A DNA stretch of 35,989 nucleotides, taken from NCBI GenBank assembly GCA_002256025.1, contig NKIB01015426.1, positions 1 to 35,989 on the forward strand. The letters are read 5' to 3'. Of the stretch, positions 6,260 through 35,989 are shown piece after piece (position 1 is the stretch's first letter; the number at the start of each line of letters is the position of its first letter). A model generated the notes under the pieces. The model saw nothing but the letters and a program-made list of their open reading frames with translations, ran no database searches and was not told where the DNA came from. The position numbers were made by a program, and so were the translations under genes. The stretch comes from Asterionella formosa. Lineage: Eukaryota.

Positions 6260-6369
6260 TGCCTGAAAATTTATTGTCAAAATCAAGTCACAAACAATTT
6301 GTTTGCTTATGAGTGGGGTGGACATTCAGTAATTTGTTACAGGAGACCACAGTAGAATGCATCAAATAG

Positions 6370-8438: not shown

Positions 8439-8549
8439 ATTGATCATACAAAAAAATTGATTGATCATACAGAATTACTGATTGATCATACAAAAACACT
8501 GATTGATCATACAGAATTACTGATTGATCATACAAAAAAACTGATTGAT
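8439..8549. repeat. 21-bp tandem repeat, ~5.3 copies, alternating A/B variants
   Basis: ATTGATCATACA starts at 8439, 8460, 8481, 8502 and 8523 (partial at 8544), followed alternately by AAAA(A/C)A(T/C)TG-like and GAATTACTG. Confidence 0.9.
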
Positions 8550-10856
8550 ATCAACCAACGTTTTGGTGTTCGATCTAATGATAATAATCGTGAGATCAAA
8601 TTAGTTATTCATTCGGTCTAACCTTTGGAATGCTAATATCAAATAGAATTTTTAGCTTTTGATCTAACTTTAATTACTTCTTATCTAACTGATTTCTCTC
8701 ATTGATCAAACCTATTATCATGTTCGATCAATGATGAACACAAATCGAATTAAATGGATTGCAATTTAATACTCAAATATTCTACTTCTGGTCATCCATA
8801 CTTTCCGCTGTGCATCCTCTATTAGAATGAGCACACAGTGGTCTTCAATACCTTAATTTTCACTTCCGGTAGCTATGTTTAGATCATTGCCTTTTCAAAA
8901 TGAAATGAGAGAGTAAACGAAATTGATGATGCTTTATTCGAACCTCTACCATTGCGAATGGCAGCAAGTCACATTCTCCAATGTTCTTGTACGACTTTCC
9001 TGTAAGAGATAAAAACAAAGTTACGATTGTTATTTCAAACCCCCTGCTATTCAAGGTTCATGTGATGCTACTATTTCCTAACTGAAATGAAGCTACTTCC
9101 TGATTAGTGATGTTGCGGCTCTAATTCTGCAGCATACAAACGTTCTCGCCAATAGCTAGTCAATGAGAATGGAAGACCCTTGATTAAGTCCATGAGCAAC
9201 AAACTGCGCCGCCATCTGGTCTATCTTCACATTGATCCACATCTCATCTTGATGAACAGATTCGAAATACGGATCGATGTTCGCAATGGACGAATTATGA
9301 TCAAAAGGTACTATCTTCTTGATTTCGGTTGGAATTGGAATCAGGTATGGCCTTCAATGCATCGTTCTCCAATTCTGTTGTATATGAAGGGACCAAAGCT
9401 TTTGATTTCGAGTAACAAACAAACAATCAAACTTCGCCAGCATAATTCCCCATCAATATCGAGACCATATCATTCATTATAAGACTGAGATCATCGTTGT
9501 CCCCGCAAGAAGGTAGCTCATAAGGGATTGTTCAACAAACGCACATGGCTTGTAAGAAATTCGATTACTGATATGCAAATGGAGAGATAATGACGAATAC
9601 AAGCAACCGGTACAAGAATTGGATCAAAGCATGTCCCGGTAGAGCATTCAAATCGGGATGGCAACAAGGAACGCACCGTTGTTGCACAGAATTCATTCTG
9701 ATAGCATCGTCAGGTACAAGGTTTCTTACATACACGTAAGAAGGTCATCTGTGTAAAGTCATAACCTTTGCTAAAACAATAATTGATCAAAGAACAACAG
9801 CTATTGATCAATCAAACAACGTATCAATATATCAAAGCATTTGGTTAGCATATTAAATTTGATACCTAATATATATGACTTCTATCTATGCGTAACCTGA
9901 CGTGTGTAAGAAAAGAATCTGATAAAAGCAGCACTGATCTTCGCATTCCAGCGCCCAAAGTCACTAAGTTGGTTGGGATGATACTGGGTCGGTAAGTAAG
10001 GTCTAGTAACCTTCTAATGAATGAGAAGTAGTAGTAAAGCGCTTAATAGAACATGACTCCGCAAAAATAAACCAACCTAGTATCCCAAGGAAGTATGTTG
10101 TGGCTGACCCCAATTTTCAACAGCAAGGCACCTTTTAAGTCAATCTGTTGTGGTATCTGATGAGATATTTACGCTGAAAGCACCTGATTTTCAAAAGTTC
10201 CCAACGAGCGGGTAGAGAGGAGCGCCTCGGAGAGACTACGCACACATTTGAACAACTTTTCGAGAGGGAGAACATGGCGGTGTGGAGTTCATCTTGTGCA
10301 TTCCAGCTATCAAAAAATACTCACAGGTTCCTAGGATAAAAGTCAATGTCAATGCTGTGTTCTCACCAGATTCCGGAGACCATGGCGTGTTTTTTTCAAC
10401 GCCCTCCATCCAGACCTCAAAAATGATCAACCCAGTGCTTGGTACACCAGGTACATTTGATTCATCAAAGCTTGGCGTACTTACTCTGCCCATGCTCATT
10501 ATTATAGAAATCATTGACAAAACATATTTAAAGAGAATTTGGTGAAAGATTACCATGACTAGGAGCATTTCCATTTATTCTTTCAAATCACATACCACGC
10601 TATTGAATGATTGTTTGTTTGGAAATACAAGTATACTTCTTGAAAGTTATGATACCTACCAGCTGTTGCATTCAATTCTCGTGTCTTCATGATTGGCACT
10701 ATTTGTCAACAGCAATCAACGAACCGCCAAAATAACCTTTTCATGAATTATCAGAAACTTATGTGCATTTAATCTTAAGAATATGTGTCTACTTGAGCAT
10801 GCAGTTGTAATTTCAATGATATTGGCAGGGATTGGGTTGAATTCCAAATGCCTGGT

Positions 10857-12720
10857 CTATTTCATCAAATTCTTGGCCCATGTCCTGGGAACATTGTTAT
10901 AATCAATTTGCCCATGTTTGTCTTCCATTTCTTTCAATTGTTCATGCACTACATTGTTGTCAACTGCCTTCCGAAAATTCTTGACAACATCAAATGACAC
11001 ACATCCTGCATTCTTCGCTTTGTCAAGGAGGGCACATGCTACACCATTTCTTTCATTTCCATTTGGCATCAGGTATGCAGTGGCTTGCATGAGTCGATCA
11101 AACGTCATGGCATCGGGGACCAATCCATCCAATAATAATGCTTTGTTCATGGCAAATGCTATTTTCAATGCAACCGTCTGTTGTTTGTCATCACCACAAC
11201 ATCTAGAACATGCATCAATGGCAGAATTGTACACCAAAAGAGATGGTTTGCAATTTTCATCACCATTGGTTTCAAACTGTTGTTTCATATTCCTTACCAA
11301 TGTCAAGACGCGTGTGGCCTTGGTGGGATCTTGCGATCGGGCCCAACATGTACATAGGGCAGCATAGGTTCGCTGATTGGGTTTCATTTCTGTAGAGGAT
11401 CCATCCAACATTTCTTGCAAGAGTTCTTCACCCCGCACAGCCGCCTTATCTGATTTGGTCTTGCTCCATGCTGAGATGAGGGATGTGTACGTTCGTACAT
11501 TGGGCAGTAGTTTTTCCAACTTTTGTTGGCTATACAATTCCTTGAGTTCTGTCAAGAGTGATTCTGCTTGCAAGGTCGACTTGACAACTCCACATCGTCC
11601 AAAAATATCGATCATGATAGAATATGTGAATGCATCTGGTTGTTGATCTGAGTCTTGTGTTTGTGCAAATCGTTCTTTTTCCTGTTGTAACAACTCATGT
11701 GCTTCCGTTGCCAAGGCTATCATATCATTTTTATCTTGTAATTTGGAAATGTGCTTTGCATATGCGCTCAAGAGAGAATTAAAGGTTCGAATATTTTTCA
11801 CCAAATTGGCTGATACCATGTGCTTATATATTTGCTGGAGTCGTCTTAGTGCATCTGGATCTTGGGATTGCGACCATGCTTCCAAAATCCCATGATATGA
11901 ATAGGCATCTGGCGTCAAAGTGTCATGCTCCAAGAGTTTCCGCAATAGCCGTTCGGCTGTGTGTGGAGCATCCTTATCATTGGATTTGGCCCATGCGTCT
12001 ATAGGATGTGTGTGTGTGTGTTTGTATGTATTTATGTATGAGAGAGAGTTGAAAAAGATGTGAGACCAGGGAAAGAAGTAATGCCAACATATCCCATCCA
12101 TTCCTGCTGAATCTTATTCGCTATTACATAAAAACATGTTTTCGTCGCACGTGCTTATACTGACCTATTACGACATTGTAACTTGTAGTTTCTGTCAGGT
12201 CCTTGTCTGATTGTAGTAATATCTTGGTGACATGTTCTGCGGCATCTCTCGCTGTATAAACGGCAATTGCCGCTGCAGGTGTCAGCATCCTACTACTACT
12301 GATATTCCCGGCAGCGATAGAATTTGTCAATAACGTGGCAGGTTCTTGTGTGCCATCCGCTAAAATGGCAGTCGTCTTTTGCCACACCTTCAAGAGCATA
12401 TTGAGCGAGTGAGTCGATTTGTTCGATTGAGCATGATACAGTTGTTCGACTTGCGATGCGATGAAGATAACATTTCTTCCTGGTTTGCATTTGGACGAAA
12501 GATGATCCATTTCTGCTTCTATGTTGCGGTCGCTTCGTTGCGTCGGTTCTTCTCCAATTGCGGAGGTGGCGCTGGTGGAGAACAATGGCAGTAGCGGTTG
12601 TCGCAAGGACAGCGGGGACGGTTGGATCACAAAGGCGCTCAATGTCGGAATCCTCCAAGACGAGGCGACAACCAAGAGAAGCGCAGTGGCAGATGCTGTT
12701 AGACGGAGCGCACTTGGCAT
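10857..12720 (-). CDS. Pentatricopeptide repeat (PPR) protein, predicted plastid-targeted; 2 exons (12720-12165, 11998-10857), 565 aa
   Basis: Splicing the GT..AG intron 12164-11999 rebuilds the PPR motif TTSYNVVIDAWAKS. Further motifs: PDAYSYHGILEAWSQS, NIRTFNSLLSAYAK, PDAFTYSIMIDIFGRC, PNVRTYTSLISAWSKT, PNQRTYAALCTCWARS, PSLLVYNSAIDACSRC. The N-terminal signal peptide ends LSA|FVIQP (ASAFAP-like). Confidence 0.92.
11999..12164 (-). other. Spliceosomal intron of the PPR gene (166 bp; contains a short CA/TG microsatellite)
   Basis: Donor ATAG|GTCAGT and acceptor CCTATAG|AC on the minus strand. The phase-1 junction keeps the frame. Confidence 0.85.
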
Positions 12721-13809
12721 GATGGAGCGTGTGATACGACTTAGGATTCTGTCTCGGCTTGCAATCTAACGATTATATGATGTTTTGCTTTTGATGTGGT
12801 GAATGTCAAAGTTGTGTTCTTTCGAAAAACTCACTGCCACGACAAATGGACTTTTTCTTTTCGTTTTGCCGACATCAAAGAAATCAAGTCTTCTTACCCG
12901 TATATACACACATATGAATACTGGTATTTATTACCTAGTTGATGGTTCCCAAATTGAAGATACCGTATCATGACTACCGGGTAATGTATCAGGTATTACA
13001 ATGATTTTGATGATACACAAAATATGGTACTGTATCTACAATATACGTAAAGTGGACCTCGTCGAATATATATATTCATCTTATGAATAGAGTTCAGTAT
13101 CACGTTTTTCGACACCAGGAACAACAATACAACAATGGAAGGTCCATTATTTATTTGATATACGAGGTCAGCTTTTCCCAGGTCATTTATGTGCCTGTGG
13201 TACATACCAGTACGGAGTACCGGTAACAGGTAGGAGTACCGGTACATAGGAAGAGGATCAAGAAGACACGCATATCTGGGTTCTTTCCAAGTTCCCGTTA
13301 CATACAAACAAGGTAATACAGCATATCTGCAAACAAAGAAGGGGTTGTCTCGCAACCAATCATACTTAACATGGATGAAAACCGATACTGGTCGTAGCTA
13401 TTCCTACTTCACACAGTGCGTCTACTAATGGTTGGTTTTGGCGAGATTGGGTTATAGGTCAGCGAAAAAATACGTACTACATTTTCAGCAATCCATTGCA
13501 CGGTAGATAACTGGCGGTGTGTCCGCGAGGAATGAAATGAACATGAAATGATGGCTGTGGTCGAGAGGAGCTGAAAACCTCCTGTGAAAATAATTTGCAT
13601 GTACCGCCGGTATATTGAGTGATGTTACATACCGGCAGTACCGGTATCCTCCTCTCTACCGGTAGTGATGATTGGCCATTCATATACGGATTAGTCAAAA
13701 ATATACGGTAGTATATCTTCATCCCTGCAATCGACATGCCAGCATAGAAGAAGTTGAATGAATGAGCTGATAAGATTGATCATATTTGAATGGCACGAAG
13801 ACGATTAAA

Positions 13810-15951
13810 ATGAGGCTTCTATCATTGGTTGCCCTTGGTGGAGTATTACAATTGCTGGACTGCCCAGGCCCTGTCGCCGTTTATGCTTTTTCCTACACAT
13901 GGACCATCAACACAGGACAACAACGACAAGCGCAACTACATAATCGCTATCGGTATTACGGGTCTACTACTGAGAATCGGTATGCCACTCGACGACACAA
14001 GTCATCAGAAAAGGGTTCTACTACTGATGAACATGACGATGTAAATGGTACCACACCAAAGTTCAGCAAATTGATTGACGAATCAACCACACTCATAACT
14101 CCATTACCAGAGTACTTAAAGGAACAATCATCAGAGCCAATTTCGGTATCGCCGCTACTGTTGCAGCAGCAGCAGCAACAACAGGATAATATAGCCATCT
14201 CAACACAGCAATTGTTGCGTCAACAACAAGAACAAATAGAGTTACTCATCAAAACCCTACAAAGTCAAGCAGCTACAACGCCAGTGACTCCAATAACTAC
14301 TACAATAACAAACTCCATCCCACCCCTCAAGGTCATGCTATTCATCGATGGAACGTGGTTGTATTATAGTATCTTCGAGCGACCCAAAAAGGCATGTCCA
14401 ATTTCTCAGCAATACGATACGGCCAGCCGTCCATGGTATACAACACATAAAGTGGATTGGGCTGCCATACCATCCCTTGTGGCGGAATGCTTGACACAAC
14501 AAGAACAAAAGAGTGGCTGGACACAACAACCGCGGACCGTTAGCATTGAACGTGCCTTTTGCTTTACATCCTACAAGAAAGACACATCTCCAACATCCAA
14601 TCGGGTGCGAATGTTTGAAGATATGAAAGATGCCAATTATGATGTGTTCATTATGGATACCATGGGACCAGGGGAGAAATGCGTCGATATTCAATTGGCG
14701 GTAGAAATGATGCACTATGCCACAATACCTGATGCCTACGATGTAGCCGTCTTGATTAGTGGCGACAAAGACTTTTTACCTGCACTTCTCAGGACTCGAC
14801 AAAAGGCACGGAATGTGGCACTAGTCAGTATGAGAACTGCCTGCAATCGGGCCTTATATGAAACACCAAATGCATTGGATTATGATGTTATTTGGATGGA
14901 AGACTACATTGACCGATGGGTAGTCGAGAAGGATGAGAATAAAGGAGAAGGGGATGTGACAGAAGCTTTAGTTTCTTCATTTACAATACTCAAGGTCATT
15001 TATGACTATATTGCAAATTCTGGGATGCAAAAAGTGTCATCAAGAGATATTGGAAGATATTTGAAGTCAATGGAGATTGGATCACCTGGGAAAGAGGCAT
15101 CTTTGCTGGATCAAGTCAAAATTCTTGGCGGTGGTCTCTTTCGCTTTCTAGTCTATCACAAGGAATATTTTGAGGTGACTCGAAGATCTCCGAAAGAAGA
15201 AAAGGCTGGCTTGCGCAACGATGCTGGTGATCGAGCGTTTGGAGTCTTCCTTAATCCGTTTGCGGGACTATATTTGGCGAAAGAAGAAAAGGAAGCAAAG
15301 CTTTCTAAGCTAGAAACTGACTTTTTCGAAAGTTATAATTTGGACAGACTGCGCGACAAAGACGAAGAATACCCTCTTTCCAGAACAATGCTTATGGATC
15401 CTAAGAACTCAAGAGGAGATACGTTCAAGACAAACCAAGGAATTATCCATTCGCATCATGATGTTGCAGGGGCGGTGGAAGCATCAATTGGTTTACCCAT
15501 GGACGAAACAGATTATTCAAAATTTACTATTGTCAATCTCAAGGAATTATGTCGTGAACGGGGTCTTAAAGTTACTGGCAGCAAAGCCATATTAGTGGAG
15601 CGAATTATTCAAGACAATATCATGAAAGTACAAGCCCAGAATCTTACTCCGAAACCAATTCGAGGTTCCACTATCAATCATGAATCACAGATCCAAGATA
15701 CACCCGAGTCTCGATTGTTTATTGCTCAAATAAACGAATATTTGACAGCATCTGGAGGTGAAGCAAGCTCACGTGATGTGGGTAGATATCTAGCTGCTGC
15801 ACCTGGATTGCGCGGAAGGGGCACCTCAGCTTTGACCGAACTTAAGGAAGCCTTTGTGAGCCTTCGAGCTTTTGTTGACGGCAACCAAGCGCATTTCTAT
15901 CGAGCAGAATGTGATTTGATTTATGAGTTCAGAATAGGTATCCAAAAGTAA
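13810..15951 (+). CDS. NYN-domain (LabA/DUF88-like PIN-fold) ribonuclease with SAP domain and two repeated SSRD(I/V)GRYL wHTH/LOTUS-like modules; predicted plastid-targeted; 713 aa
   Basis: Intact ORF. NYN motifs VMLFIDGTW, EKCVDIQLAVEM and DVAVLISGDKDFLPALLRTRQKARNVALVS. SAP motif YSKFTIVNLKELCRERGLKVTGSKAILVERI. Hydrophobic N-terminus ending VYA|FSY. First ATG at 13810. Confidence 0.9.
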   Translation: MRLLSLVALGGVLQLLDCPGPVAVYAFSYTWTINTGQQRQAQLHNRYRYYGSTTENRYATRRHKSSEKGSTTDEHDDVNGTTPKFSKLIDESTTLITPLPEYLKEQSSEPISVSPLLLQQQQQQQDNIAISTQQLLRQQQEQIELLIKTLQSQAATTPVTPITTTITNSIPPLKVMLFIDGTWLYYSIFERPKKACPISQQYDTASRPWYTTHKVDWAAIPSLVAECLTQQEQKSGWTQQPRTVSIERAFCFTSYKKDTSPTSNRVRMFEDMKDANYDVFIMDTMGPGEKCVDIQLAVEMMHYATIPDAYDVAVLISGDKDFLPALLRTRQKARNVALVSMRTACNRALYETPNALDYDVIWMEDYIDRWVVEKDENKGEGDVTEALVSSFTILKVIYDYIANSGMQKVSSRDIGRYLKSMEIGSPGKEASLLDQVKILGGGLFRFLVYHKEYFEVTRRSPKEEKAGLRNDAGDRAFGVFLNPFAGLYLAKEEKEAKLSKLETDFFESYNLDRLRDKDEEYPLSRTMLMDPKNSRGDTFKTNQGIIHSHHDVAGAVEASIGLPMDETDYSKFTIVNLKELCRERGLKVTGSKAILVERIIQDNIMKVQAQNLTPKPIRGSTINHESQIQDTPESRLFIAQINEYLTASGGEASSRDVGRYLAAAPGLRGRGTSALTELKEAFVSLRAFVDGNQAHFYRAECDLIYEFRIGIQK

Positions 15952-16036
15952 GGTGAGACAAAGTTATTTCCATGAGAGAAAACGATAAACTTGAGGTATC
16001 ACCTAAAAACTGAGAGTCATTTAAGGTTTACCCTAT

Positions 16037-16431
16037 NNNNNNNNNNNNNNNNNNNNNNNNNNNNNNNNNNNNNNNNNNNNNNNNNNNNNNNNNNNNNNNN
16101 NNNNNNNNNNNNNNNNNNNNNNNNNNNNNNNNNNNNNNNNNNNNNNNNNNNNNNNNNNNNNNNNNNNNNNNNNNNNNNNNNNNNNNNNNNNNNNNNNNNN
16201 NNNNNNNNNNNNNNNNNNNNNNNNNNNNNNNNNNNNNNNNNNNNNNNNNNNNNNNNNNNNNNNNNNNNNNNNNNNNNNNNNNNNNNNNNNNNNNNNNNNN
16301 NNNNNNNNNNNNNNNNNNNNNNNNNNNNNNNNNNNNNNNNNNNNNNNNNNNNNNNNNNNNNNNNNNNNNNNNNNNNNNNNNNNNNNNNNNNNNNNNNNNN
16401 NNNNNNNNNNNNNNNNNNNNNNNNNNNNNNN
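16037..16431. other. Assembly gap (N run)
   Basis: Run of N. Confidence 1.
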
Positions 16432-17429: not shown

Positions 17430-18560
17430 CTTCAACTCTGAAAGACTTCGCCTAAATCGATGAGGACAAGCTGGATACCAGTCACTTACATTTGGAGGCA
17501 ACAGTCCTTACAGACAATCAGAAAAAGGGAACCAAAGACATCTTGCCGAGAACGCAAGGATGGTGAATCCGAAAAATTGATGGGCATTCATACTCCAAGC
17601 TCGCAGAGGAAAACCTTAAAGGTAACCCCCAGATTCATAGGAAGTCAGATGAAAGGAAATCTCAGTACTATGCAAATAAAATCGATCGAACGGAAGAGTC
17701 AAATAGTGTCACCTCCATCATGGCCATTATCTGCTTGACCAAAAACTTATCCATCTGTTTATGCCATCACTAAAACATTCCTTGATGTGGTGAACTCCTG
17801 TACAGCATTATCAATAAATTCCCTACAACAAACAAGGAGAAACAAACAGTGATGAATGGATTCCTTGGAAAAAGCGAGCAGCAACTATCTCGTTGATGCA
17901 TTGGTGCTATAGAGGATGGATATTTACAGCCTATTGCTAAACAAAGAAAAAAGATCGTGATGGCTTCCCTCAAGCATAGTATTGTTCTGGGCCTTAAATG
18001 CATGTCATATGGATTGAATGTTCAAGCTGTTTGTGACAGCAATTGTTGTTTCCTATACTTTGGTGTCCTGGCACCAGGAAAATGTCCAGATCAGAAGGTA
18101 ATTGAAAGAACAAAACTTTTTCAGATTGTATCCAACCTTCGTCCAAGACAATACATAGTAGTAGGTGATGCTGCTTACACATTGACTGATCAAGTGCTCT
18201 GTCCACTTTTTGGAAGTCAAAGGGAATCAAAAAAAAGATGCATACAACTGATTGCTTCCTTTCACAACTCCGCATAAGAATTGAGATGATGTTTGGATTG
18301 CTCACCAATAAATGGAGAATCCTGAGGACATCGTTGTCTTTCAGGATGAAGAAATCATCTGCAATTCTTTCTGGTGCTTGTGCCCGCTTACACATTTTTT
18401 GCGTACTCATGGATGATGATAAAAAGAAAGAACTTGCTAATGGAATGGAATTTCTGACTAGTTTGGAGCTGGTTGATCCAATGCCCAATGCTCCTCTTGG
18501 GTGGGCTTATCTTCCAACTGTCAGGAAGTTGGATGTAGTACAACTTGTACTACATCCAAC
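17430..18560 (+). mobile_element. PIF/Harbinger transposase (HARBI1/DDE_Tnp_4-like) pseudogene, 3'-truncated
   Basis: Motifs FPTT, CIGAIEDG, YGLNVQAVCD, FGVLAPG, VGDAAY, LSQLRIRIEMMFGLLTNKWRIL and ACARLHIFC. Frameshifts and stops. It ends at a telomere-repeat tract. Confidence 0.9.
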
Positions 18561-18563
18561 TTA

Positions 18564-18581
18564 AACCCTAACCCTAACCCT
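18564..18581 (-). repeat. Interstitial telomeric repeat (AACCCT)x3
   Basis: AACCCTAACCCTAACCCT directly after the Harbinger coding remnant. Confidence 0.75.
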
Positions 18582-19615: not shown

Positions 19616-19681
19616 TTGGGGTTAGGGTTAGGGTTAGGGTTAGGGTTAGGGTTAGGGTTAGGGTTAGGGTTAGGGTTAGGG
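19616..19681 (+). repeat. Interstitial telomeric repeat TTGGGG(TTAGGG)x10
   Basis: Ten perfect TTAGGG units at 19622-19681. Confidence 0.97.
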
Positions 19682-20230
19682 TATTAATACGATTCTGTCT
19701 GCTATGGACAAGCATCCCTCTGATGCTACTGTGCAGCACTTTGGTTGCGCTGCACTTTGGAACATTGCTGTGATTGAGAACAACCAGGAGACGATTGCAA
19801 AAGAAGGAGGTTCTGTTTTCCATCAAAAGTCATTCATCTAATGCGAATGTACAACACAATGGTTGTGCAGCACTTTGTGACTTGGCTGTGAATGACAACA
19901 ACAAAGTGTTGATTGTTGCAGCAGGAGGTGTCACTGTGATTCTGTCTGCTATGACGAATTATTCATTGAATTCTAATGTGCAATACTATGGTTGTGCAGC
20001 CAGCACTTGGGAAATTGGCTGTGAATTACAACATCACGGTGGCAATTGTGAAAGCAGGAGGTATTGCTACAATTCTGACTGCTATTGATAAGCATTCTTA
20101 TAATGCTGGTGTTCTAGAAAACGGTCTTGCAGCACTTCAGATCTTGTTTGTGAATGCCTACATCATGGTGGCGATTGAGATTACTAAAGCAGGAGGTATC
20201 ATTACTATTCTGGCTGCTATCATTCATCCA
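19680..20230 (+). pseudogene. Armadillo-repeat gene fragment (paralogue of the ARM-kinase at 21152-23991)
   Basis: GINTILSAMDKHPSDATVQHFGCAALWNIAV; HSSNANVQHNGCAALCDLAVNDNNKVLIVAAGGVTVILSAM; AIVKAGGIATILTAIDKH. Frameshifted and 5'-truncated at the telomere tract. Confidence 0.85.
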
Positions 20231-21151: not shown

Positions 21152-23991
21152 TCAAGTCAAAAAAATGTATAGTAAATTACCAATTCTGTCCAAAACAGAG
21201 ACAAGATGATTCTTCCATTCAAAATGCTTTTCCTTCTGAGCCATAGTTGTAGTATGAATCTCCACATGAAAGTCATACAGGTTGCTGTGCAAGATTTGGC
21301 TGGTATATAGGTCCTCATTAGAAAATAACTTGTCACAACCAATGATTGGGTAATGAATGGTATCATCACCAAGATGCATATAAAACATGATCCTCAAATC
21401 ATTGTTGCATGTGGAATGGTTTTGGCAAATGGAAACATGAGTTGAACTTTTGACACAAAATTGACATAGTTTAGTGCTTTCATTCACATTGAGACTGTCA
21501 AATCATATGTTTGCCTTACAAGTCGACCAATTTCTTCAACCAATTCACTAGTCTTCGGCCTCTTCATACAATTGGTCTGGATGCAACGAATGGCTTTTGT
21601 ACACCAAAAGGACAGAATTCCATCTTCCCATTCCTCTGCAAGAAGATCAACATCCTCTACCAATTTTCGACTCCCCTCCCCCCTCAATGCATCATAATTG
21701 ATGATGTAGCGTTCATAGAAATCTCCCAACTTATCATTTTGGAGGCAGCCTGTCACAAGCTCAATCATGACCATGCCAAACGAATAGACATCACACGATG
21801 CTTCAAATGTCTTATGTCCACGAGAATACCATGGACATGTGTAGCCAGGTGTCCCAAAGATTCCACCATGTGATGTGTTCCAAACTAAAAAAGGAATTGC
21901 TCTGGTTGAAATGGAGTCATCTACAGGAACAAACTTGGCTAGACCGCAATCAATCAATTTGGCAGTATAGTTCTGTTGAAGGCATATATTAGCCGACTTT
22001 ATGTCGCCATGAAACAGAATGTGGTTGTCATGTGTATCAGTATGAAGGAAGTGGATGGCACGAATAATGTCGAACATGATTCGAAGTTGTCTCTCACTTG
22101 AGAGACTTGCTCTTCTTTGTTTACACGCATAAAATGTATCAAGCGAACCCTTGGATGCAAACTCATCACCAGGTATTGGGAAGGCAAACCAGGGGACAAA
22201 TGATATTCAAACAAAATAACAATATGAGGGTGTTGGAAACTCTTTAATGACTGAAACAGTATGATAGAAGAAAGAGAAACATAAGACTTGAAACGACATG
22301 CAATAGATGATATCAGAAATGAGCTCACCTCATATTCAGTTTTCAAACTCTTGCTAACATCCTGCACCTTATCTTTCTCAACAGCAAAATCGAAAAGCAT
22401 ACGTATAAAAGTAAAATACCGATTGTCATGCTTGCCTTCATAGACCGCACCCAAAGCTCCTTGACCAAGTTTCAAGGCTACATCAAAGTTGTTTGTACAA
22501 TTTATAATGAACTCCACTGGAAGCTCGATTGGTCTTGAATTCACATTATCAATAGCTTCCTTCATTTTCAACTGACCTACAGAAATGCGATCAGTTGAAT
22601 TGCTACTGCTTGGTGTTTGAGTTCTTGTTGAGATTGGTTGAAAATAGGAAGCACTAAGCTTTTTCATAGACACCAATATTGGATGAGTGATTTTGAATAG
22701 CAGACTCAACTGCGAATTTTCCACCAGCTTTGGAAATCGTCATCTTATTGTTGTCATTATTATAAGCAAAGTTAAAAAGTGCCTCACAACCATAGTGTTG
22801 TACAGGACTACTCCAGGAATATTTCTTCATTGCAGACAGAATTGTAGTGATACCTCCTGCTTCAGCAATCGTCACCTCGTAGTTTTCATTAAAAGCCAAG
22901 TTCCCTAGTGCTTGACAACCATACTCTTGCACATAAGCATTGGAGGAATGATTATCCATCGCAGACAGAATCGCAGTCCTCCTGCTTCAGCAATCGTCAC
23001 CTTGCTGTTGTCATCATTCACAGCCAAGCACCAAAGTGCTACACAACCATAGCGTTGCACATTAGCATTGGATGAATGCGTCTTTATTGCAGACAGAATC
23101 GCAGTGATACCTGCTGCTGCAGTGATTACTGCACTGAAGTAGTCATTCAAAGCTAAGTTTCTAAGTGCTGCACAACCATACTACTGTTGTACCTTAGCAT
23201 TGGATGAATTAGTCAACATCGCATGCAGAATTGTACTGCTGCAACAATTGACACCTTGTTGTTTTCAATCACAGCCAAGTTCTCAAGTGCTGCACAACCA
23301 TTGTGATGGACATCCTCATTGGAGCAATGATTTGTCATGGCAGACAGAAGCGTAATAATACCTTCTGGTTGTTATCATTCGCTGCCAAACGCTGAAGTGC
23401 TGCAAATCTATAGTGTTGCACATTGGCATTTGGATTTATGATTCTTCAGCGCAGACAGAATCGTAGTGATAACTCCTGTTTCAGCAGTTGCCACATCGTA
23501 ATCTTTCTCGAAAGCCAAGGCCCAAAAAAGCCCACAAGCGTAGTATTGCACATTTGCAATGGTTGAATGAGTCTTCATGGCAGACAGAATCAAATTGATA
23601 CCTCCTGCTTTAAGAATCGCCACCTTGTTTTCGTCATTCCAAGCCAAGTTCGCAAGCTCCTTCAGACCTTCTTCTTTAATGTAAGCATTTCGCTCATTCA
23701 TTTGAATCTCTGAAAGAATTGCAGCAGTCAGAGACGAAATTGAACTGTTTGGAATTTTTGTTGCTGGCAAAGAAGGAGGCAGCGGAGCATCGCATCTACT
23801 AGGGCAGCTCTCTCGCACGGTCTTCCAAACTCCATTCCATTTCTTTTTGCGAAGCTGAATGTCTGAGTGATAACGACAGAATCCATCTTTATGAGCTCAA
23901 CTTGTACGGCATGCTTAGACACTATTGGAGCATCATACTGAATAGTGGTAGGGTTGTATGAAGCCTGGAGTGTAGGTGAGAAACTTGCCAT
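21152..23991 (-). pseudogene. ARM repeats + IRAK/Pelle(RLK)-like protein kinase + degenerate RING-like zinc finger, frameshifted
   Basis: About 8 ARM repeats (xAGGIxxILSAMKxHSSNAxVQxYGCxALxNLA). Kinase motifs CTNNF, LGQGALGAVYEG, HPHIV, HGDIKSANICL, AKLIDCGLAK, FGTPGY and DVYSFGMVMIELVTG. Probable intron 22328-22251 (GTGAG..TTCAG). C-terminal CQFC..C..H..C..YPIIGC. Several frameshifts. Confidence 0.85.
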
Positions 23992-27035: not shown

Positions 27036-28302
27036 ATTAAAATCATAGCATTGTTGCTATTGTCGCACGTACTTCTGTTAAGGCGATCTGTTCAGCATTC
27101 TGCTGGTTTTTTATTAGGTACATCGGCCACTAACTGACCAACAGGAGGGTTCAAGACCACTAAAATTTCCTGGGCAGATTCATAATAGTCGGCAGGTATG
27201 GCCCTGGGCACAGTACCCTAACCAGACATCATCATAGGGTTAACCCATGGATTTGCTTGTATAAAACATGTACGGAAGAAAAAACATGAATTGAGTTAGC
27301 TGTGTTAGTATGATAATTTGCTCCACGTAGAATTTCTACGCCAGAGGAACAGGAACAAGGTTAGTAGTGTTAGTAATGTTAACTCCATTAACCTTATGTT
27401 TGACCGTTGTTTCATATCCCATGCGTGGCCAGCTGCATTAAAATGCATTTGCCCTGCCATTGCCACTGAGTATAATTTTATCATGTACAAATTTATGCTT
27501 GAAATGGTGGTTGTATTCTTGATACATCACATGACTGCATTTAGCAATGCAAGACGATCTTTTGTTAAAATTGACACTAGTCACGCTTATTTTCTTGATG
27601 CATCATGGAATTGTCTTCAACTTCAACTATTTATATACGATTTTGTGTTAGAAAATTGACACCAGGCCCGCGCGATCTCTCGACATTACACGATTGCCTT
27701 CAGAGACGCGAAGTCGATTTTGGCTTATGGTAGAACTCATGCTTGAGGATGTGCTTGAGTTGATCTTTGAATGATTGTTGACTCTCGAAGTAAGTCAAAA
27801 CCAAGCGAATCAATTATTTTGTGTTCTTTTCATTGTTCCATTCAAACACTTGCTTGTTGCCACGCATTGTTGATCGATCAAAATGACAATCAACCTCAAA
27901 TCTTCCTTGGCGGAAACCTCTTGATCTTCTGAGTGAGTTATCAGTGTGTCAAATATTTGTCATTAAGGTTGTGGCCCTCGGCTTACCCCTAGTTTGGAGA
28001 AAAAGTCGATAGGGTTGTAAAAACGGCGTGAAACAGGGAATTTTTTCTGTGTATTCCCAAGATGCAAGTATCTCCCTGAATATTTAAACTAAGTAGAAAA
28101 TGGCGCCACATTGATAGAGTTCCATTTCAAAATGAATGAAGACATTTATGTTGTATCTACCTTGCTCAATGTAGATATAATTTTACTCCCCACCAGAGCA
28201 CATGTATATACTAGCTACTATATAGTATACCTCAAGCATGTACTGGTAGTCATCCTGCTTCTATAATGCAATATTGGTTCTCCTCTCTGCAAGCATCAAA
28301 CA

Positions 28303-28758
28303 ATGCAACAATCAACCATGAGTTCTGTTGGCTCTCCCCCAGTGCATGCCAATCCACTTCCAGACAATCATGTTCTGTGCCCCACTTGTATTGATCGTGA
28401 CATTGTCGAATCTGAAGTTGCAGACTGTGGGAATTGCATCTTCTGCGAATGCTGTGACTTTGCATGCCCAGAGTGCCAATCTCGATGGGACGAGATGGAG
28501 GAGTTAGTTGAACAATACATGGAAGCAGACTTGGTTCAGCTTCGACTTGACGAAGATGTTATCACGCCGGGCCAAGGAAGAAACCTTACATAGTACAAGT
28601 TTCTGGTCAAGATGTTCTGTGGCTCACTTGGGAAAGGCATTTGTATGGAACTTCCAGATTGTTGCCTGAAGGGGGTTTGTTCGCTTCTCAAGAATAAGGA
28701 TCACAAAGAAGAGTTCACTGGTTTCCAACCAGTATCTAAAAATTTTAAACACTGTTAG
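28303..28758 (+). pseudogene. KolX-like accessory protein (Cys-rich; similar to the P2X7 C-terminal 'ballast'-like domain), one in-frame stop at 28591
   Basis: CPTC..CGNCIFCECCDFACPEC, then RNLT*YKFLVKMFCGSLGKGICMELPDCCLKGVCSLL..EEFTGF, which matches the pattern R..AY..F....G.LGK..R..LP.C....IR..FP...Y.GF. Confidence 0.7.
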
Positions 28759-28931
28759 TCATCTATTAATTTTATTAGTTTGCTTATATTTGAACATTGT
28801 CATTATCATCGCATTGCTGAAAATATTCTTAGCCTTTATAACGTTAAAAACCATCAATAAATATTCAAACCTTTCAATCCTTGGCATTAAAAAATTAAAG
28901 AACATAAATTTATTACACTAGTTTCAAAAAT

Positions 28932-30269
28932 ATGAAAGGTTCAGATACCCATCTCAGTTCCTCGATTGCAAATGGTGGCAAAGGACGGCGCACACGCAAA
29001 GAGGCGCCTGATGAAACCATTTGGTTTGACGAAACAAAGAAAATTACAGATACAACAGAAAACACACCACCCGTAATGAATCTGAGCGGACATTGTTAAT
29101 AGTCTGCAGAATCATTAAAGCAGTTTATAGAGAGCAACAGTAGCTGTAGTAAATGCAGTGAAAAGTTGAGATTGCAAGCGTATAATATTGCATACAAACA
29201 AGGAATGGCAGATATACAAATGTACCTTATCCAAAAATGTCAAGGAAAAAGATCAATAGAAGATAAATACAATGAATTCATTGAAAGCCATGATATTTTC
29301 ATTGACAGCACAGAGTCATCAGAATCTCCTTCACAGATAACAAGGCTGATTGTTGCCAACAATGTTAGTCCATTTCTTGGCTTTGCTAGCCGAATTTCAA
29401 TTACCTATGCGCAATGTGATGAAAGAAAGTATATTGAACCTGTAATTTGCAAAAACAAAGAAGGAAATTATGAGAAAGGCAATCAATCAGAACACTTTGC
29501 AATCAATAACATGTTTGTTCTTGGTTGTCACGAAGCAGGAATGAGTCCGGTTGACGCTGATTAACAAAGAACGACTGCCTGCGACTGAAAATCTATTATG
29601 GATGCTGCTTCATAAAGAAAAATCGACATAAGCCATTCGAAGATTTTTGTACAGCATCAATGGCACCAATCCACCACTTATTTGACAGTCATGAGCACTG
29701 TAATCCGGAATGGTGTCCTGCAAAAGCAAGTAAAAAAGTTAGTAAAGGAAAACATTGAGGACAACAAGGAAATGTTTGATTGGTTAATTGAAAATGTTAG
29801 CAAAAAATGGAAGGTGAGAAGCTCAAAGCATTACATCATCCATTCGATACACAAATGAATGAGGTGATGAACAATGCTGTTGCAAGGCGTTGTCCAAAAA
29901 ACAAAATGTTTGCTGGCTCCCAAAGCCTGCTCTATCGAGTAGCATTAGTGGCAGGACAGCAAACACAAGGCGCTGATAAATACATGTCAGATGTATATGA
30001 AATGTTGGGGATGACTATGTCAACCCGACAACAAACCTTTTGGAGTCAACGGCAAAAAAGCGAACAAATGATGCTGAATACAAGAAAAACCCCACAAGGA
30101 AACGCAAACGAAGCGAAGCAATCCATAGTTCACGATTCGAAACAATGAAACAAGAAAAGACGACAAGAAAAGAGGAAGAACTTACGAATCAGGTATAGCA
30201 TTCACCATGGATACTCAAGGAAGTATTCAATCTCCCGCTGCCAAGAAATGCAAGAATTGCGAACATACC
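28932..30269 (+). pseudogene. Kolobok-type transposase, 5' part (internal deletion near 29560; interrupted by Copia)
   Basis: CSKC; FAINNMFVLGCHEAGMSP; then a jump to LTKNDCLRLKIYYG..PIHHLFDSHEHCNPEWCP; LHHPFDTQMNEVMNNAVARRCPKNKMF; YESGIAF; KKCKNCEHT. Confidence 0.75.
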
Positions 30270-30529
30270 TGTTAGGAAATATGGACGTACAAGATACAGA
30301 CGATGAATGGATTAAAGTACAAGGAAAGAAAAAGAAGAAAGAAGCCACTTCCACAGTGAAGGCTACGTGGCTGAATGAGTAGGTATATATATACACAGTT
30401 AACATGAGTTCTGCTCATTCTTTACTATTTATCGGGTTTACATCGATAAAGCCTCCCCTGTAGACTGTCTTCTGTCCATTGTTGTCTTACAGACACAATA
30501 GAATACAGTCCGAACTTGTGGATTTAACA
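30270..30529 (+). repeat. 5' LTR (260 bp)
   Basis: TGTTAGGAAATATGG...GGATTTAACA; about 98% identical to the 3' LTR. Confidence 0.95.
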
Positions 30530-30556
30530 TAATTAGTAAAGAAAAAGGCAAATACA

Positions 30557-33500
30557 ATGGGAGGCGGCAATATGGCACCCGATGATGGTGGCGGCGGTGA
30601 TGCCACACCAAAAGACAAGAAGGAAAGTGTTGGTGGCAAGAAGCTACTGTATCGATACGGAAACCATGGAAACCAGAAGAATGCTGTTCCACGGCAGCCC
30701 AAGTTTGAAGGGAAATGCGACAAGCTGAAAGGTCATGTCTACGATTGCTCAGATGCAAGACAGGCAGACTTGTTTATCAAGACAACAAAGGAGGTGGCTG
30801 AGTTTGTGGAGCGGACCTACAAGTATGGCAGTGACATCCGATTGGCAGTAGAAAACCTCCTGCAGGTGCCAAACATCGCTGAGCCATATGACCCACCAGC
30901 AGGCACATCCAGGACTCAGGAGCGCATTTGGGAAAAACAGGTAGATGAATCTGTTAAGCGAACAACCTACATAAGCAAGAATATTAAGACCCTATATTCA
31001 CTAGTCTGGCCAATGCACAGACATTATGAGGCAAAAAATCGAGGCCTTGCACGATTTCGAGGAGATGTTGACCAACGGTGATGGTCTTGCATTGCTCAAA
31101 GCAATCAAAAACACTGCTTTCAACTTCCAAAGCCAAAAGTACCTTCCACATTCACTGTATGAATCGACTCAACGTTTCTACATGACGGCCCAAGGAAAGT
31201 ATTTGACAACCCAGGCTTATCTTGAACAGTTTCAAAACATGATAGATGTCATTGTACATACAGGAGGAATGGTGGGACATCAACCTGGAATCATAAGAGC
31301 CATAATGAGGGAAAGGGGCATTGATCCAACAAATGCCACAACCATGCAACAAATGGAAATTGAGAAGGATGCCCAGAACCGCTATTTGGCTGTTGCCTTC
31401 ATGCTTGGTTCAGATAAGGCCAGGTTTGGTCGCCTGCTTGAGAACTTGGAGAATGACTATCTCCAAGGCCAAAATAATTACCCAACATCCATCACTGCAG
31501 CCTATAATCTGCTTACGCAATCTTATACGTACAAGTGGACCAGTCAGGAATGGATTATCGTTTACCAATGTAGATGGTGAACATGGAGAACAACACATTG
31601 CGCTTGCAAACAGTGGACATACTAAATCTCGACGAAATAAACTGTCACACGTCACATGCCACAAATGTGGCAAACAGGGACATGTTACTGACAAATGTGA
31701 AGAGGAGCAGCGTCAGGAGCCGTGTCAGGAGCATCAAACTGGCTCCATGCTTTTGACGGAAGGTATATAGAATGGAGAGTTCAATCATGACGTGCACTTC
31801 CAATTCCTGCAGCACACCAAGGAAGTATCATTGAAGCTAGATGAGGGCGGAAAAATCCCAAAGAGCTGGATCTTTTCAGACAACCAGTCTACTGTTGATG
31901 TCTTCTATGATGCAAATCTACTCAGGAATATCAGAAAAGTTGAAAAACATATGGATATTCACTGCAATGCAGGTGTTACAAGCACTAACTTGGTCGGTGA
32001 CTTGCCAGGATATGGAACAGTGTGGTACCATCCAAATGGGATTGCCAACATCTTGTCCCTGGCAAAAATGCAGGAACATGGGTACCACATTAAATATGAC
32101 AGCAAGTATGGAAATGCATTCATAATTCACAAACCAGACAGAAGCATGAGAGTGTTTAAACAATCAGATTGTGGTCTATACTTCATGGACAGCAAGACGG
32201 CCAGTGCGCACTACAGATGTCACACTGGTTAATACGGTAGACGATAACCGTTCTAACTACACCAACCGTGACTATTCTTGTGCAGTATTAGCTTGTCAAT
32301 TACAAAAGATCATAGGAAGGCCAAGTACTTGTACATTCACTAAAATTGAGGAGAACAATTTACTACCAAACTGCCCAGTGACGCAAAGGGACATCATGAT
32401 GGCAGAGGATATATTTGGTCCTGATGTGGGATCACTAAAAGGGAAAACCACTCGACGCGGAACTGATCATGTGGCAATCAATCTAATTGAAATCCCAGTC
32501 AGCATCATGAATCACTATAAAAGTATCATCTTGGGAGGTGACATCATGTTTGTGAACAAAATGCCTTTCTTTGTGACCATGTCCCGCCACATCAAATTTG
32601 GGACAGCAGAAATGCTGCAAAACCAACAAAGTAAGACAAAACTAAGGGCAATTAAACAAGTGAAAAGTGTCTATATGAAGAGGGGATTTAAGATTTCAAC
32701 ATTATTAATGGATGGACAATTTGAATCAATCAGAGGTGACCTGGCCGAAATGCAAATCAATCTCAATACTGTTTCCAATGATGAACACGTCCCAGAAGTG
32801 GAAAGATACATTTGTACCATCAAAGAGCGTGCACGTTGTGTATATAACACATTGCCATTTAGGCGAATTCCAACAAGGATGATAATTGAAATCGTCTATC
32901 ACAGTGTGTTCTGGCTTAACAGTTTCCCAGCAGAAGGTGGAATATCTCCTAAACTAAGCCCTCATGCCATTGTGATTGGAACACTCATCGATTACAATAA
33001 GCACTGCAAACTTGAGTTTGGTACATATGTGCAAGTTCATGAAGAGCATGACAACTCCATGGCCACCAGAACCACAGGGGCAATCGCACTACGACCAACA
33101 GGAAACGAGCAAGGCGGTTACTACTTTTACAGCCTCACTAGCGGTTGAGTTCTAAATCGGAACCATTGGACCGCATTACCTATGCCAGCAGAAGTAATTG
33201 ATAGAATACACGTCCTCACTCGCTGCAATACCGGCAATGGCACCCCTGAGCTGATGTTCACTGATCGTGATGGTGCTTCTCTCACCAACCATAAGGATGA
33301 CAATAGTGATGATGAGTCCTATCACCCTGATGAGGATGCCAATTCCATTATTAATAATACAATGATGACTATTATCTATAACTTCCGATGCGGAAAACAA
33401 CCCTAATGCTCCCATCGCAGGAGTGAATGATGAAGAACACGAACAAAATAATGCCGAAATCGAGGAGGAACACGAACATTATGATGAAGAACACTAACAG

Positions 33501-34790
33501 TATGATGAAGAACACAAACAAAATAATGCCAGAATCGAGGAGGAAAATTTAGAAAACGAAATTGAGGACGAAAATTTTGAAGATCATATTAATAATCTGG
33601 CCAGTGAAGAGGAGCAACAAAACATGTCACTAGACAAGGAAATGGATGCGAAATATGGGACCCGAAGCAGTGGATATGAACTACAACCCAGACGACCACA
33701 GGACTATAGTCACATGCATACAACTCTTGAAAATACAGTGATGACACAGCATAACATGAAAAAAGGGATTAAGCTCTTTGGTGATGCAGGAATTAATGCA
33801 GTACTAAAGGAACTACAACAGCTACATCTACATGACAGAAAGGTCCTAGAGCCAGTGAACGCCAAATAGATCCCAAACTATTCCGCAAACATGTACAGAT
33901 GCAAGGGGGTAAACAGGTCTTATATGTGGAACTAAAGAAAGCACTGTACGGAACTCTCAAGGCAGCGCTGTTATTTTGGAAGAAAGTCACAAAACGAAAT
34001 TGAATTAATGGGGATTTGAGGTGAATCCATACGATTGGTGTGTAATGAACAAGACAATTGATGGGGCCCAATGCACAATATTATGGCATGTGGATGATCT
34101 AAAGATATCTCATGTCAAGCCAAATGTGTTACCAAGGTAATCAAACAGTTGGAGGCGGAGTTTGGCATTGAGGCACCCCTTGCAAAGACACGTGGAAAAG
34201 TTCATGAATACCTAGGCATGATTCTTGATTTTACTACACCAGGAAAAGTCATGGTGTCAATGAAGGATTTTATTGAACGGATGCTAAACGAGCTACCAAC
34301 AGACATGGATGGGGAAGCTGTGACTGCAGCAGCAAATCATCTCTTTGAAGTGAACGAAACAGACCCAATCAAGTTGAACGAGGAACCGTGAATATGCCAC
34401 TAACACTGGAGGCAGAAAGTATGCAAATAGTCAAGTGGTGGGTCGACGCTTCATTTGCTGTTAACCCAGAAATGAAAAGTCACACCGGAGCTGTAATGAC
34501 CCTAGGAAAATGAGGAATATATGGCACATCAACCAGGCAAAGAATTAACACAAGAAGTTCCACAGAAGGTGATCGAGCAGCAAAAGAACTCGCCATATTA
34601 AGATCAGAAACTTTTTTGTTCGTGATCGTATTGAGGCAAAAGAGGTGTCAGTTCAATACTGCCCCACACAAGAGATGGTTGCAGATTTTTTACAAAGCCA
34701 CTACATGGCGTCCTTTTCCAGAAATTTAGAAACGAGATTATGAATGTTGATCCAGCAACTGTTAGCTTCCAGGATCACAGGAGTGTGTTG
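30557..34790 (+). pseudogene. Copia gag-pol polyprotein pseudogene
   Basis: Gag KFEGKCDKLKGHVYD and LENDYLQGQNNYP; CCHC CHKCGKQGHVTDKC; protease WIFSDNQSTVDVF; integrase GDIMFVN, MDGQFE and EHVPEVERYI.TIKER; RT KALYGTLKAALLFW and LWHVDDLKISH; RNase H WVDASFAV..MKSHTG, TRSSTEG and MVADFFTKPL. Stops, frameshifts and deletions (about 33865 and 34390). Confidence 0.93.
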
Positions 34791-35043
34791 GGAAATATGG
34801 ACGTACAAGATACAGACGATGAATGGATTAAAGTACAAGGAAAGAAAAAGAAGAAAGAAGCCACTTCCACAGTGAAGGCTACGTGGCTGAATGAGTAGGT
34901 ATATATACACAGTTAACATGAGTTCTGCTCATTCTTTACTAATTATCGGGTTTACATTGATAAAGCCTCCCCTGTAGACTGTCTTCTGTCCATTGTTGTC
35001 TTACAGACACAATAGAATACAGTCCGAACTTGTGAATGTAACA
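34786..35043 (+). repeat. 3' LTR (258 bp)
   Basis: TGTTGGGAAATATGG...GAATGTAACA, followed by the TSD ATACC. Confidence 0.95.
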
Positions 35044-35339
35044 ATACCGATCATTTGAGAAGGACAAGTGCACGATGTCAATACAAGAACAACAGCAAAA
35101 TGCTAGCAGCTCCTCGTGGTGAACTCGTACATGAAACTACTGGTAATACTGATTTTACAGATGAGTCTAATACATGTGGTTCAAGTGTGGCTGGCGTACC
35201 ATGGAGTAGCCCCTTTTTAAACTATTTTTGCGGTAGTTACGAATCTATGATACATAACTGCCACTTCTCTCCAGAAATGGGGTCCTTACCATATCTCTAT
35301 ATAGATCATACCCCTAAGTCGACCCATGACTGTATCTAA
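35044..35339 (+). pseudogene. Kolobok-type transposase, 3' part
   Basis: Removing the Copia and one TSD copy gives the in-frame sequence CKNCEHTDHLRRTSARCQYKNN (C-x2-C-x4-H-x7-C knuckle). Confidence 0.75.
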
Positions 35340-35989
35340 GCATATGCAAAGTGGTCGTATTGGTGAAAGCTAATTTTACCTTTAACTATTCTATTTAGTT
35401 GGACGTACTGTGTGGATTGAAGTACATACTAAAATTATTTTGGAAAAAAACAGACCTCGTGATGTGTAACTGCGGGGCCGCAACCTTAATATCCACTGGT
35501 CAAATGGATTGTGACTGCTTTTTTGAAACAAAGAACGATGCATTGAGCATGCTGTGACAACGAGTATCCAAAATAATATGTACCAGTAATCTTTATTACC
35601 GGTATATTTTATTCCTTGAACATAATTCCGTGCTATATAGGATCTATGGTTTTCTATCTACACAAATCGAGCATACTCAGGACTCATCACATACCAGGTA
35701 GTAGGGGATGCGTTCGGTTCTGAAACTACCGGTATTTTGTCATCCGGATACCGGCACGTTAAGTTACATCAAGGTGCCGATTTGTACCCTGATGGTATCA
35801 GGTACCAATGGTACCTGGTACCAGGGTAACTACAGGTAGAGGGTTGAATGATTAGAAACGGAATACCGGGAACGTAGTCGTAAAAAATTAAACTCCCAGT
35901 TAAACCCGTAGTGGAAGCTAGCACTAGTAGTTTACTACTACTCCAGTACAGTGCACAAAGCTATTCTTTGCGACAATACCGGTTGTGGT

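Follow-up and report, generated by a model that had tools for sequence, protein, structure and literature searches.

Kolobok transposons are defined by TTAA targets and 5'-RR..YY-3' termini, and their hosts include the diatom Fragilariopsis cylindrus (PMC9587614). Kolobok has also been listed for Cyclotella cryptica (PMC7466962). Among Kolobok lineages, the accessory gene KolX has been described for Kol0 of animals alone and has been linked to the ballast of P2X7, a CCHC finger after the first catalytic Asp (D1) is listed for other Kolobok lineages, and piggyBac-borne KolX-like proteins without most of the cysteines have been reported (PMC9587614). A stretch of 35,989 nucleotides from Asterionella formosa (contig NKIB01015426.1 of assembly GCA_002256025.1, positions 1 to 35,989; hereafter the window) was analyzed following an earlier note made from its letters alone. 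Positions 27967-35485 hold a Kolobok copy with TTAA on both sides and GG..CC ends. This copy is very probably a dead, internally deleted member of a ~3.9-kb, two-gene diatom Kolobok family (family A), with a KolX-like upstream gene, that was later broken by a Copia-type long terminal repeat (LTR) retrotransposon. Without the nested element it measures 2740 bp. Seven silicon-transporter matches over the cut-off were found in the genome, fitting a diatom host.

The earlier note had described TTAA duplications and 11-bp terminal inverted repeats (TIRs), and both were confirmed. The left TIR, GGTTGTGGCCC, and the right TIR, GGTTGCGGCCC on the minus strand, agree at 10 of 11 bases, and each strand of the whole window has the pattern a single time. 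The 15-mer TTAAGGTTGYGGCCC had 258 exact matches genome-wide, compared to none for its reversed control. Shared ends among genomic copies were assessed at 39 own-genome loci chosen by internal similarity, independent of the terminal pattern. The same terminal base was reached by 16 of 23 matches at the left end and by 11 of 12 at the right. The outer four bases at those sister ends were TTAA in 11 of 16 (left) and 5 of 11 (right) instances, the remainder being mostly one-base variants, and the flanks outside them were unrelated to one another. The element termini are real. The fixed 4-bp TTAA target site duplication (TSD) is that of the Kolobok superfamily, as are the short TIRs and 5'-RR..YY-3' termini (here GG..CC). 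A subterminal motif just inside the left TIR is possibly a binding site for the transposase. The features of the copy and of the nested element are listed in Table 1.

Table 1. Features of the Kolobok copy and of the LTR element nested in it (window coordinates).
Feature	Position	Strand	Remarks
Left TTAA TSD	27963..27966	no strand	same tetramer at sister ends
Left TIR	27967..27977	+	GGTTGTGGCCC
Subterminal motif	27984..27992	+	TACCCCTAG in window copy, AACCCTAG in sisters; common to family B ends
KolX-like (short ballast-type, Cys-rich) accessory gene, pseudogene	28318..28758	+	ATG at 28318
Transposase, N-terminal part	28932..29561	+	~residues 5-216 of P0027; two stops at 29097-29102
Internal deletion junction (~780 bp)	29559..29564		3-bp GAT microhomology
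Transposase, C-terminal core	29564..30269	+	H..F..H..C...WC finger, catalytic E, basic region, half of zinc knuckle
ATACC target duplication, left copy	30265..30269		
Decayed Copia-type LTR retrotransposon	30270..35043	+	4774 bp
5' LTR	30270..30529	+	TG..CA, 260 bp
3' LTR	34786..35043	+	TG..CA, 258 bp
ATACC target duplication, right copy	35044..35048		
Second half of zinc knuckle and tail of exon 1	35049..35198	+	
Second deletion junction (~340 bp)	35199..35206		conserved ~72-75-nt intron and acidic second exon of sisters gone
Right TIR	35475..35485	-	GGTTGCGGCCC on minus strand
Right TTAA TSD	35486..35489	no strand	

The transposase motifs pointed out in the earlier note, HHLFDSHEHCNPEWC and TQMNE..N......PK, are present in the window copy, including the catalytic Glu (TQMNE, codon 29861-29863). 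However, the window copy lacks the part matching residues 217-480 of P0027, an intact 791-aa relative, and with it D1 (SYDMGW), the CCHC finger, D2 (ICDDDS) and DPSHR. The jump from GMSPVDAD to TKNDCLRLK, which had been read as loss of the catalytic Asp region, is a true deletion, as sister copies carry 776-782 additional bases at window position 29561. The earlier note made no mention of a second deletion near 35199, where sister copies carry ~340 additional bases, of an in-frame TAG (28591-28593) that splits the small gene, or of further transposase stops and frameshifts, several of which follow the two stops at 29097-29102. Both genes of the window copy are dead. Neither deletion junction nor the small-gene stop recurred in the other loci compared, and amplification of this particular deletion derivative was not seen among them. 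Many shorter non-autonomous copies, with paired ends 0.8-1.3 kb apart, are present in the genome. Transitions from C or G in the window copy were found at 10 of 78 CpG positions compared to 9 of 538 other C/G positions, and the same lean was observed in all nine sisters assessed, weakly in some. DNMT5-dependent methylation of transposons has been described in a model diatom (PMC9998398), and host methylation may underlie the CpG-biased decay seen here.

Family A is present in many copies. At least 54 genome matches were recorded for its left 1.6 kb (40 of 535 candidates scored), at least 61 for its right end (40 of 634 scored) and at least 42 for its middle (40 of 94 scored); the longest copy examined, L021, is 3889 bp. 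The sister open reading frame (ORF) L022 matches PF20700 at E 1.4e-36, and P0027 matches it at E 3.8e-43. Across 14 full-length relatives, the catalytic columns (D, D, DPxHR and E) show little or no variation. Invariant in the same 14 are C347, C350, H363 and C365 of the CCHC finger after D1 and H517, H522, C525 and C530 of a zinc finger located past DxxH and ahead of the catalytic E, the latter finger being present in the window as well. The Kolobok combination of a DDD/E triad with C/DxxH between D2 and E is found in the sisters and intact relatives, and the window copy keeps the E alone. The ends and TSD, the PF20700 match, the catalytic deletion and the silicon transporters together uphold the earlier reading of a Kolobok element, non-autonomous, in a diatom host. 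That reading had also suggested a stramenopile Kolobok family; a diatom family it is, but not a new kind, as Kolobok in diatoms had already been published. The superfamily is known, and the window copy alone is ordinary genomic debris.

A younger sister family, family B, is found in the same genome and includes P0027, for which 74 genome matches were obtained. Several family B pieces are 98-100% identical, stop-free and run into contig ends; no complete stop-free single copy was found among 57 scored candidates, the best pieces stopping at contig ends. Family B ends in TTAA-GGTTCCTGCATTTGAACCCCTAG with a 23-bp TIR (271 exact 18-mer matches). Its layout is that of family A, with the small gene followed ~190 bp further by the transposase, and the cores of the two families share 66% DNA identity. 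A terminal GGTT and a subterminal AACCC(C)TAG motif are common to both families, whose TIRs are otherwise unlike. KolX-like genes were sought on other elements of the genome; all 20 loci examined, of 70 matches, were family A or B. Conservation predicts a GT..AG intron of 72 nt in family B (L042:4176-4247) and 74-75 nt in family A (L021, L022 and L030), followed by an acidic second exon (~57 aa) that ORF callers miss. The 72-nt intron was spliced in one contig from one of three RNA runs (X5); X1 was unspliced and X2 gave no joint. Loose ends at either terminus in RNA runs X1, X5 and X15 ran into many different flanks, in agreement with many insertion sites. Separately, a skip at L042:2046-2132 and three further CT..AC skips in runs X5 and X1 point to spliced antisense RNA over the family B transposase; the 87-nt minus-strand GTAAGT..CAG intron is well supported and the others weakly so.

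Ends of the two families were also observed side by side. At 18 exact junctions (L196-L207 and six further places), a family B end shares TTAA (14) or TTAT (4) with a preceding RCAACC end. Twelve of these were examined, and the preceding end was from family A in ten (six TTAA, four TTAT), B-like in one and of another kind in one. Random expectation for TTAA junctions is ~0.2-1.1, and the six verified correspond to P ~0.001 by a hand calculation that disregards repeat clustering. Right ends were mostly paired with right ends. The excess of A-B junctions suggests targeting beside existing Kolobok ends; the TTAT class could have descended from one co-moved composite. A ~350-bp element at L152:4862-5215 has the family A right end at both termini and adjoins a family B end.

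The transposition of Kolobok elements is by cut and paste, and copies of DDD/E transposons with intact ends can be moved in trans. In an intact element, the transposase (~790 aa plus a spliced acidic tail) would bind the ends, excise the element and insert it at TTAA, duplicating the tetramer. The window copy inserted at a TTAA and lost its catalytic centre by a microhomology-bounded deletion. Such internal deletions typically derive from interrupted gap repair, which is the probable origin here. The copy has also undergone CpG-biased decay and taken up the LTR element within its zinc-knuckle codons. It can now be moved only passively. Family B might mobilize family A in trans, because GGTT and the subterminal motif are shared. 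Cross-mobilization of the window copy itself is disfavoured by the otherwise different TIRs and by its 7.5 kb with the nested element, which would make a poor substrate.

The small Cys-rich gene upstream of the transposase had been recognized in the earlier note by a signature ending in a G.LGK..LP.C..GF tail. The frame and tail are present; however, both Arg residues bracketed in that signature, conserved in the family, read Cys here, in a frame already split by the TAG. Over 91 aa, the window gene and the intact sister P0001 are 80% identical. With a profile built from 13 family members, 83 proteins were retrieved at E<=0.001 among 1.84 billion, and 43 proteins were aligned (P0001, P0008, P0015 and 40 weaker profile hits). 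Their consensus is CxxCxxxPCxW..R...Y..GxLGKGxR..LPxC...IR...P...YxGF. Four Cys (CxxC, C.W and P.C) are general across this wider family; families A and B have 8-9 Cys with spacing unlike that of P2X7, and their extra CPTC and CPEC pairs occur in just 8-10 of 38 rows. The ratio of nonsynonymous to synonymous substitution rates (dN/dS) between families A and B was about 0.12-0.18 for the small gene, with dS near saturation, and 0.23 for the transposase core. Judged by these ratios, the KolX-like gene is under purifying selection.

Related transposases were compared for gene layout at metagenome loci (the best 80 of 121). Eight of these have the KolX-like gene upstream in the orientation of the transposase and 4 have it downstream in the opposing orientation; none was detected in the other 68. 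Fifteen of the 68 are complete elements (3.2-3.4 kb, TTAA/GG..CC) in which no second frame is conserved; the others have short flanks or undefined ends, and L070, with TG ends, was left out of the 15. L048, L055, L058, L060, L061, L065, L066, L073, L109 and L114, with near copies, are complete single-gene Kolobok elements with ~0.8 kb of 3' sequence that holds no conserved frame. The TIR search found no ends for L046, L049, L053, L063, L097, L115 and L116, where the KolX genes can be placed only next to transposases. The tandem order of KolX and then transposase, which the earlier note took as possibly distinctive, is not unique to this family: it recurs in a second, deeply diverged clade; long branches separate the two lineages that have it. 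A tree of 22 labelled rows, from which unlabelled and nearly identical ones had been dropped, is compatible with a single origin or several (support 59/12 for the tandem layout and 76/73 for KolX carriage). Across the clade, two lineages have the gene upstream in tandem and two have it downstream and convergent; in one instance it seems to be fused to a region resembling an OB fold, and another lineage lacks it. At L063:2817-4046 (-) and at L115/L116, a convergent downstream KolX-like tail ends a ~375-410-aa frame, the front part of which gives OB-fold leads (RPA1 N-terminal/TPP1; Atlas score 0.86, a lead).

To our knowledge, no function is known for KolX. The GDP and zinc sites of the P2X7 ballast likewise have no known function (PMC9859053). 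The accessory protein of families A and B would be a KolX-like protein of short form that combines a four-Cys zinc site with a C-terminal ballast subdomain and is kept by selection on the element. It is somewhat more likely than not a zinc-stabilized regulator or cofactor of the element's own transposition. It is also possible, if less expected, that the gene is real but directed at the host, as an anti-silencing or chromatin factor, or is a hitch-hiker, without action on the transposase or its DNA. The absence of KolX from the 15 complete relatives and its position upstream in some lineages and downstream-convergent in others both point this way. Similar proteins on piggyBac (PMC9587614, Data S6) argue against a dedicated partner, and the CpG decay of copies indicates that silencing is a real pressure. 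However, no host partner is known, and purifying selection, which fits either role, excludes a neutral passenger. The young, spliced family B, with the free-standing P0008 (150 aa) and the 791-aa P0027, offers a compact system for work on nucleotide binding and on an effect on transposition.

The earlier note's proposal of kinship with KolX and the P2X7 ballast is upheld by a chain of profiles and by fold comparisons, although it is transitive, is largely confined to the C-terminal ~55 residues and concerns a gene that is a pseudogene in the window. PF20478 (P2RX7_C) was matched at E<=0.1 by 31 of the 43 aligned members (best 2.8e-9), and the profile of the aligned set matches P2X7 538-592 at E 2.9e-7. 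A profile of 26 relatives without families A and B matches P2X7 538-593 at E 2.1e-7 and, by hhalign, the family profile at 99.1% and E 5.7e-19; 23 of the 26 were originally found with the family profile, so the two matches partly depend on each other. The curated PF20478 cut-off is passed by three individual genes that lie upstream of related transposases. In the AlphaFold model of the small protein (mean predicted local distance difference test score, pLDDT, 72.7; residues 1-50 below 60), P2X7 was the top Foldseek row (E 2.3), and a second structural comparison gave it Z 5.2-7.7 compared to 2.1 for other rows. A wide fold search ranked P2X7 first of 48,161 chains (Z 5.4; next fold 4.7). Equivalents of P2X7 R546, Y550, C572, R578 and G590 are kept in 37, 35, 37, 29 and 36 of 38 rows, respectively. 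Taken together, these profile and model comparisons indicate a real but distant, transitive kinship centred on the C-terminal subdomain. A role through a guanine-nucleotide pocket is rather unlikely; it is suggested because the R546 and R578 equivalents are kept and because the related P-element transposase uses GTP.

Several observations weigh against this account of the element as a KolX-bearing Kolobok. No intact family A copy was found among the 39 loci examined. PF20700, the Pfam family matched by the transposase, carries the label Mutator-like, and the probable assignment of that transposase to Kolobok rests on the ends and on a by-eye motif match with reference rows. Because 15 complete relatives carry no detectable KolX gene, KolX is not needed for transposition in this clade. 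Direct searches with the small proteins of families A and B gave no match to PF20478, the PDB or P2X7. In the structural comparisons, the Foldseek E value is 2.3 and the gap to the next fold in the wide search is just 0.7. The GDP-site residues H547, R574 and K583 are not kept in the aligned small proteins, a pattern of kept and lost residues that is the same in invertebrate ZCD ballast proteins (PMC7016195).

Were the kinship false, the small gene would encode a Cys-rich zinc finger of other descent, with a coincidental likeness between its tail and the ballast. This is very unlikely. The lack of a direct match for the family's own proteins is in its favour, as are the middling structural scores and an ESM Atlas search that returned RING/C2H2-like leads alone, with scores below 0.9; a PF20478 search of the genome gave no match, but neither did its controls. 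The two-step profile chain (E 5.7e-19 and 2e-7), the first rank of P2X7 in two fold searches and the genes at the same position beside related transposases that clear the PF20478 cut-off all support the KolX reading.

It is more improbable still that the element is a piggyBac or a MuDR/Mutator transposon. A TTAA target is common to piggyBac, piggyBac elements bear similar short KolX proteins, and the name of the matched Pfam family points to Mutator. However, piggyBac termini are CC..GG, and MuDR elements have variable TSDs of 8-11 bp and long TIRs. No piggyBac Pfam family was matched, and the fixed 4-bp TTAA and 11-bp TIRs do not fit MuDR. The GG..CC ends follow the Kolobok 5'-RR..YY-3' rule (PMC9587614). 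The piggyBac assignment was rejected on termini and transposase, and MuDR/Mutator on TSD and TIRs.

The C-terminal zinc knuckle named in the earlier note is interrupted in the window. Deleting 30270-35048 (the LTR element and one ATACC) restores it as CKNCEHT/DHLRRTSARC. The two LTRs differ by 5 substitutions in 258 aligned bases (1.9%) and one 2-bp indel. The interior frames follow the Copia order, comprising gag with a CCHC knuckle and protease-, integrase-, reverse transcriptase (RT)- and RNase H-like frames, the integrase and RNase H frames having been named by eye from motifs. The window's own LTR-element pieces matched no Pfam family; the sister copy L172 matches RVT_2 (E 1.1e-4), and 72 genome matches to the nested element were recorded. 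TG..CA LTRs, a 5-bp TSD, an integrase ahead of the RT and an RVT_2-type RT are the marks of Copia. Because the LTRs are 1.9% apart and the host element is 2.4% from its family majority, the data fit an LTR insertion later than that of the host element, on an uncalibrated clock. The CoDi-type diatom Copia elements named in PMC7466962 likewise have TG..CA LTRs, a 5-bp TSD and Copia gene order, whereas the window copy is decayed, with part of the RT gone. The long direct repeats within a Kolobok might instead make this a composite KolobokP-like element with no nested insertion, but there is next to no chance of this, since the repeats lie inside the Kolobok, are TG..CA-ended and have a 5-bp duplication of their own on either side. 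They bracket gag-pol-like frames, interrupt the zinc knuckle and are also present at other sites of the genome, as a family distinct from the Kolobok. KolobokP was accordingly rejected, the long direct repeats being internal LTRs rather than terminal, and no KolobokP His-Me finger nuclease was matched in the frames scanned.

Other features of the window lie upstream. A host gene for a PPR protein is at 10857-12765 (-) and one for an NYN and SAP domain protein at 13780-15951 (+). DDE_Tnp_4 (PIF/Harbinger-type) transposase fragments are at 17897-18564 (E 5.7e-10 and 2.4e-4). An interstitial run of about ten TTAGGG telomere-type repeats (19616-19681) lies directly ahead of a degenerate ~129-bp coding repeat. 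Opposed arrays of ~129-bp (43-codon) repeats, armadillo-like by eye, are at 19680-20220 (+) and 22678-23896 (-), the latter upstream of a protein-kinase frame (21484-22739; Pkinase E 4e-16). An AT-rich array of ~49/103-bp repeats with internal palindromes (6386-6972) and a 21-bp tandem array (8418-8570) adjoin assembly gaps of N (~5510-6260 and ~16030-16430).

Compared to known systems, the window element is a Kolobok that works in the manner of a two-gene Kol0 element but falls outside Kol0. With Kol0 (type Kolobok-1_XT) it shares the TTAA target, the RR..YY ends, two genes and an accessory protein related to the P2X7 ballast. It is Kolobok but not Kol0 because its relatives' transposases have the invariant CCHC finger after D1 that Kolobok_1_XT lacks. 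Kol0 is reported from animals, unlike the diatom element. The KolX of Kol0 resembles the whole of P2X7 476-595, with a seven-Cys site, whereas the wider family here keeps four Cys and resembles mainly 538-593; the homology to the ballast that marks KolX holds transitively, with no direct match for the family's own proteins.

The nearest described transposase is that of Kolobok-1_FraCyl from the diatom Fragilariopsis cylindrus (Data S5 of PMC9587614), whose motif series is alike by eye in a comparison of the catalytic core. The motifs common to Kolobok_1_FraCyl_2p include S.D.GW..RSSG..Y, a CxxC..H.C finger after D1, GS.K.ME, DDDSS, HG.L.L...EP...D..HR, D..RLK, HHF..H..C..WC, Y R...K and L...H...NT..E. 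The label "_2p" may hint at a second protein, and the two-gene layout may be on record there. Kolobok in diatoms and the link between KolX and the ballast are already published (PMC9587614). No paper describing KolX on a diatom Kolobok was found in the literature searched, a search that did not extend to Repbase, the likeliest place.

The small protein shares with P2X7, Nanor and ZCD (PTHR36981; PMC7016195) the C-terminal helical subdomain, with equivalents of R546, Y550, P570, C572, R578 and G590/F591. In contrast to P2X7, it has no channel part, and a GxLGKGxR loop with an invariant Arg stands in place of P2X7 560-566. ZCD proteins are described from Metazoa only (PMC7016195). The second proteins of piggyBac-2_GrCh and piggyBac-14_PI (Data S6 of PMC9587614) have, by eye, the same short form, CxxC...PC.W, R..Y and G.LGKG.R..IP.C...IR..WP...Y.GF. 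They ride piggyBac, whereas families A and B carry theirs on Kolobok and add an N-terminal CPTC and a further CPEC pair.

The short four-Cys module could be an accessory cassette of long standing in TTAA-targeting transposons of non-animal hosts, carried by a non-Kol0 diatom Kolobok clade and by algal and oomycete piggyBacs (we take GrCh to be a red alga and PI an oomycete). It would then be the simplest free-standing P2X7 ballast and a zinc- and guanine-nucleotide-binding transposition cofactor, perhaps steering insertion beside transposon ends; as a whole this proposal is speculative and unlikely. The present results extend the range of KolX beyond animal Kol0 elements, to a distinct Kolobok branch in diatoms, and so are relevant to whether the module moves between transposon groups. 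The presence of a short KolX, in varying gene order, on a diatom branch outside Kol0 is a noteworthy variant of the known two-gene Kolobok system.

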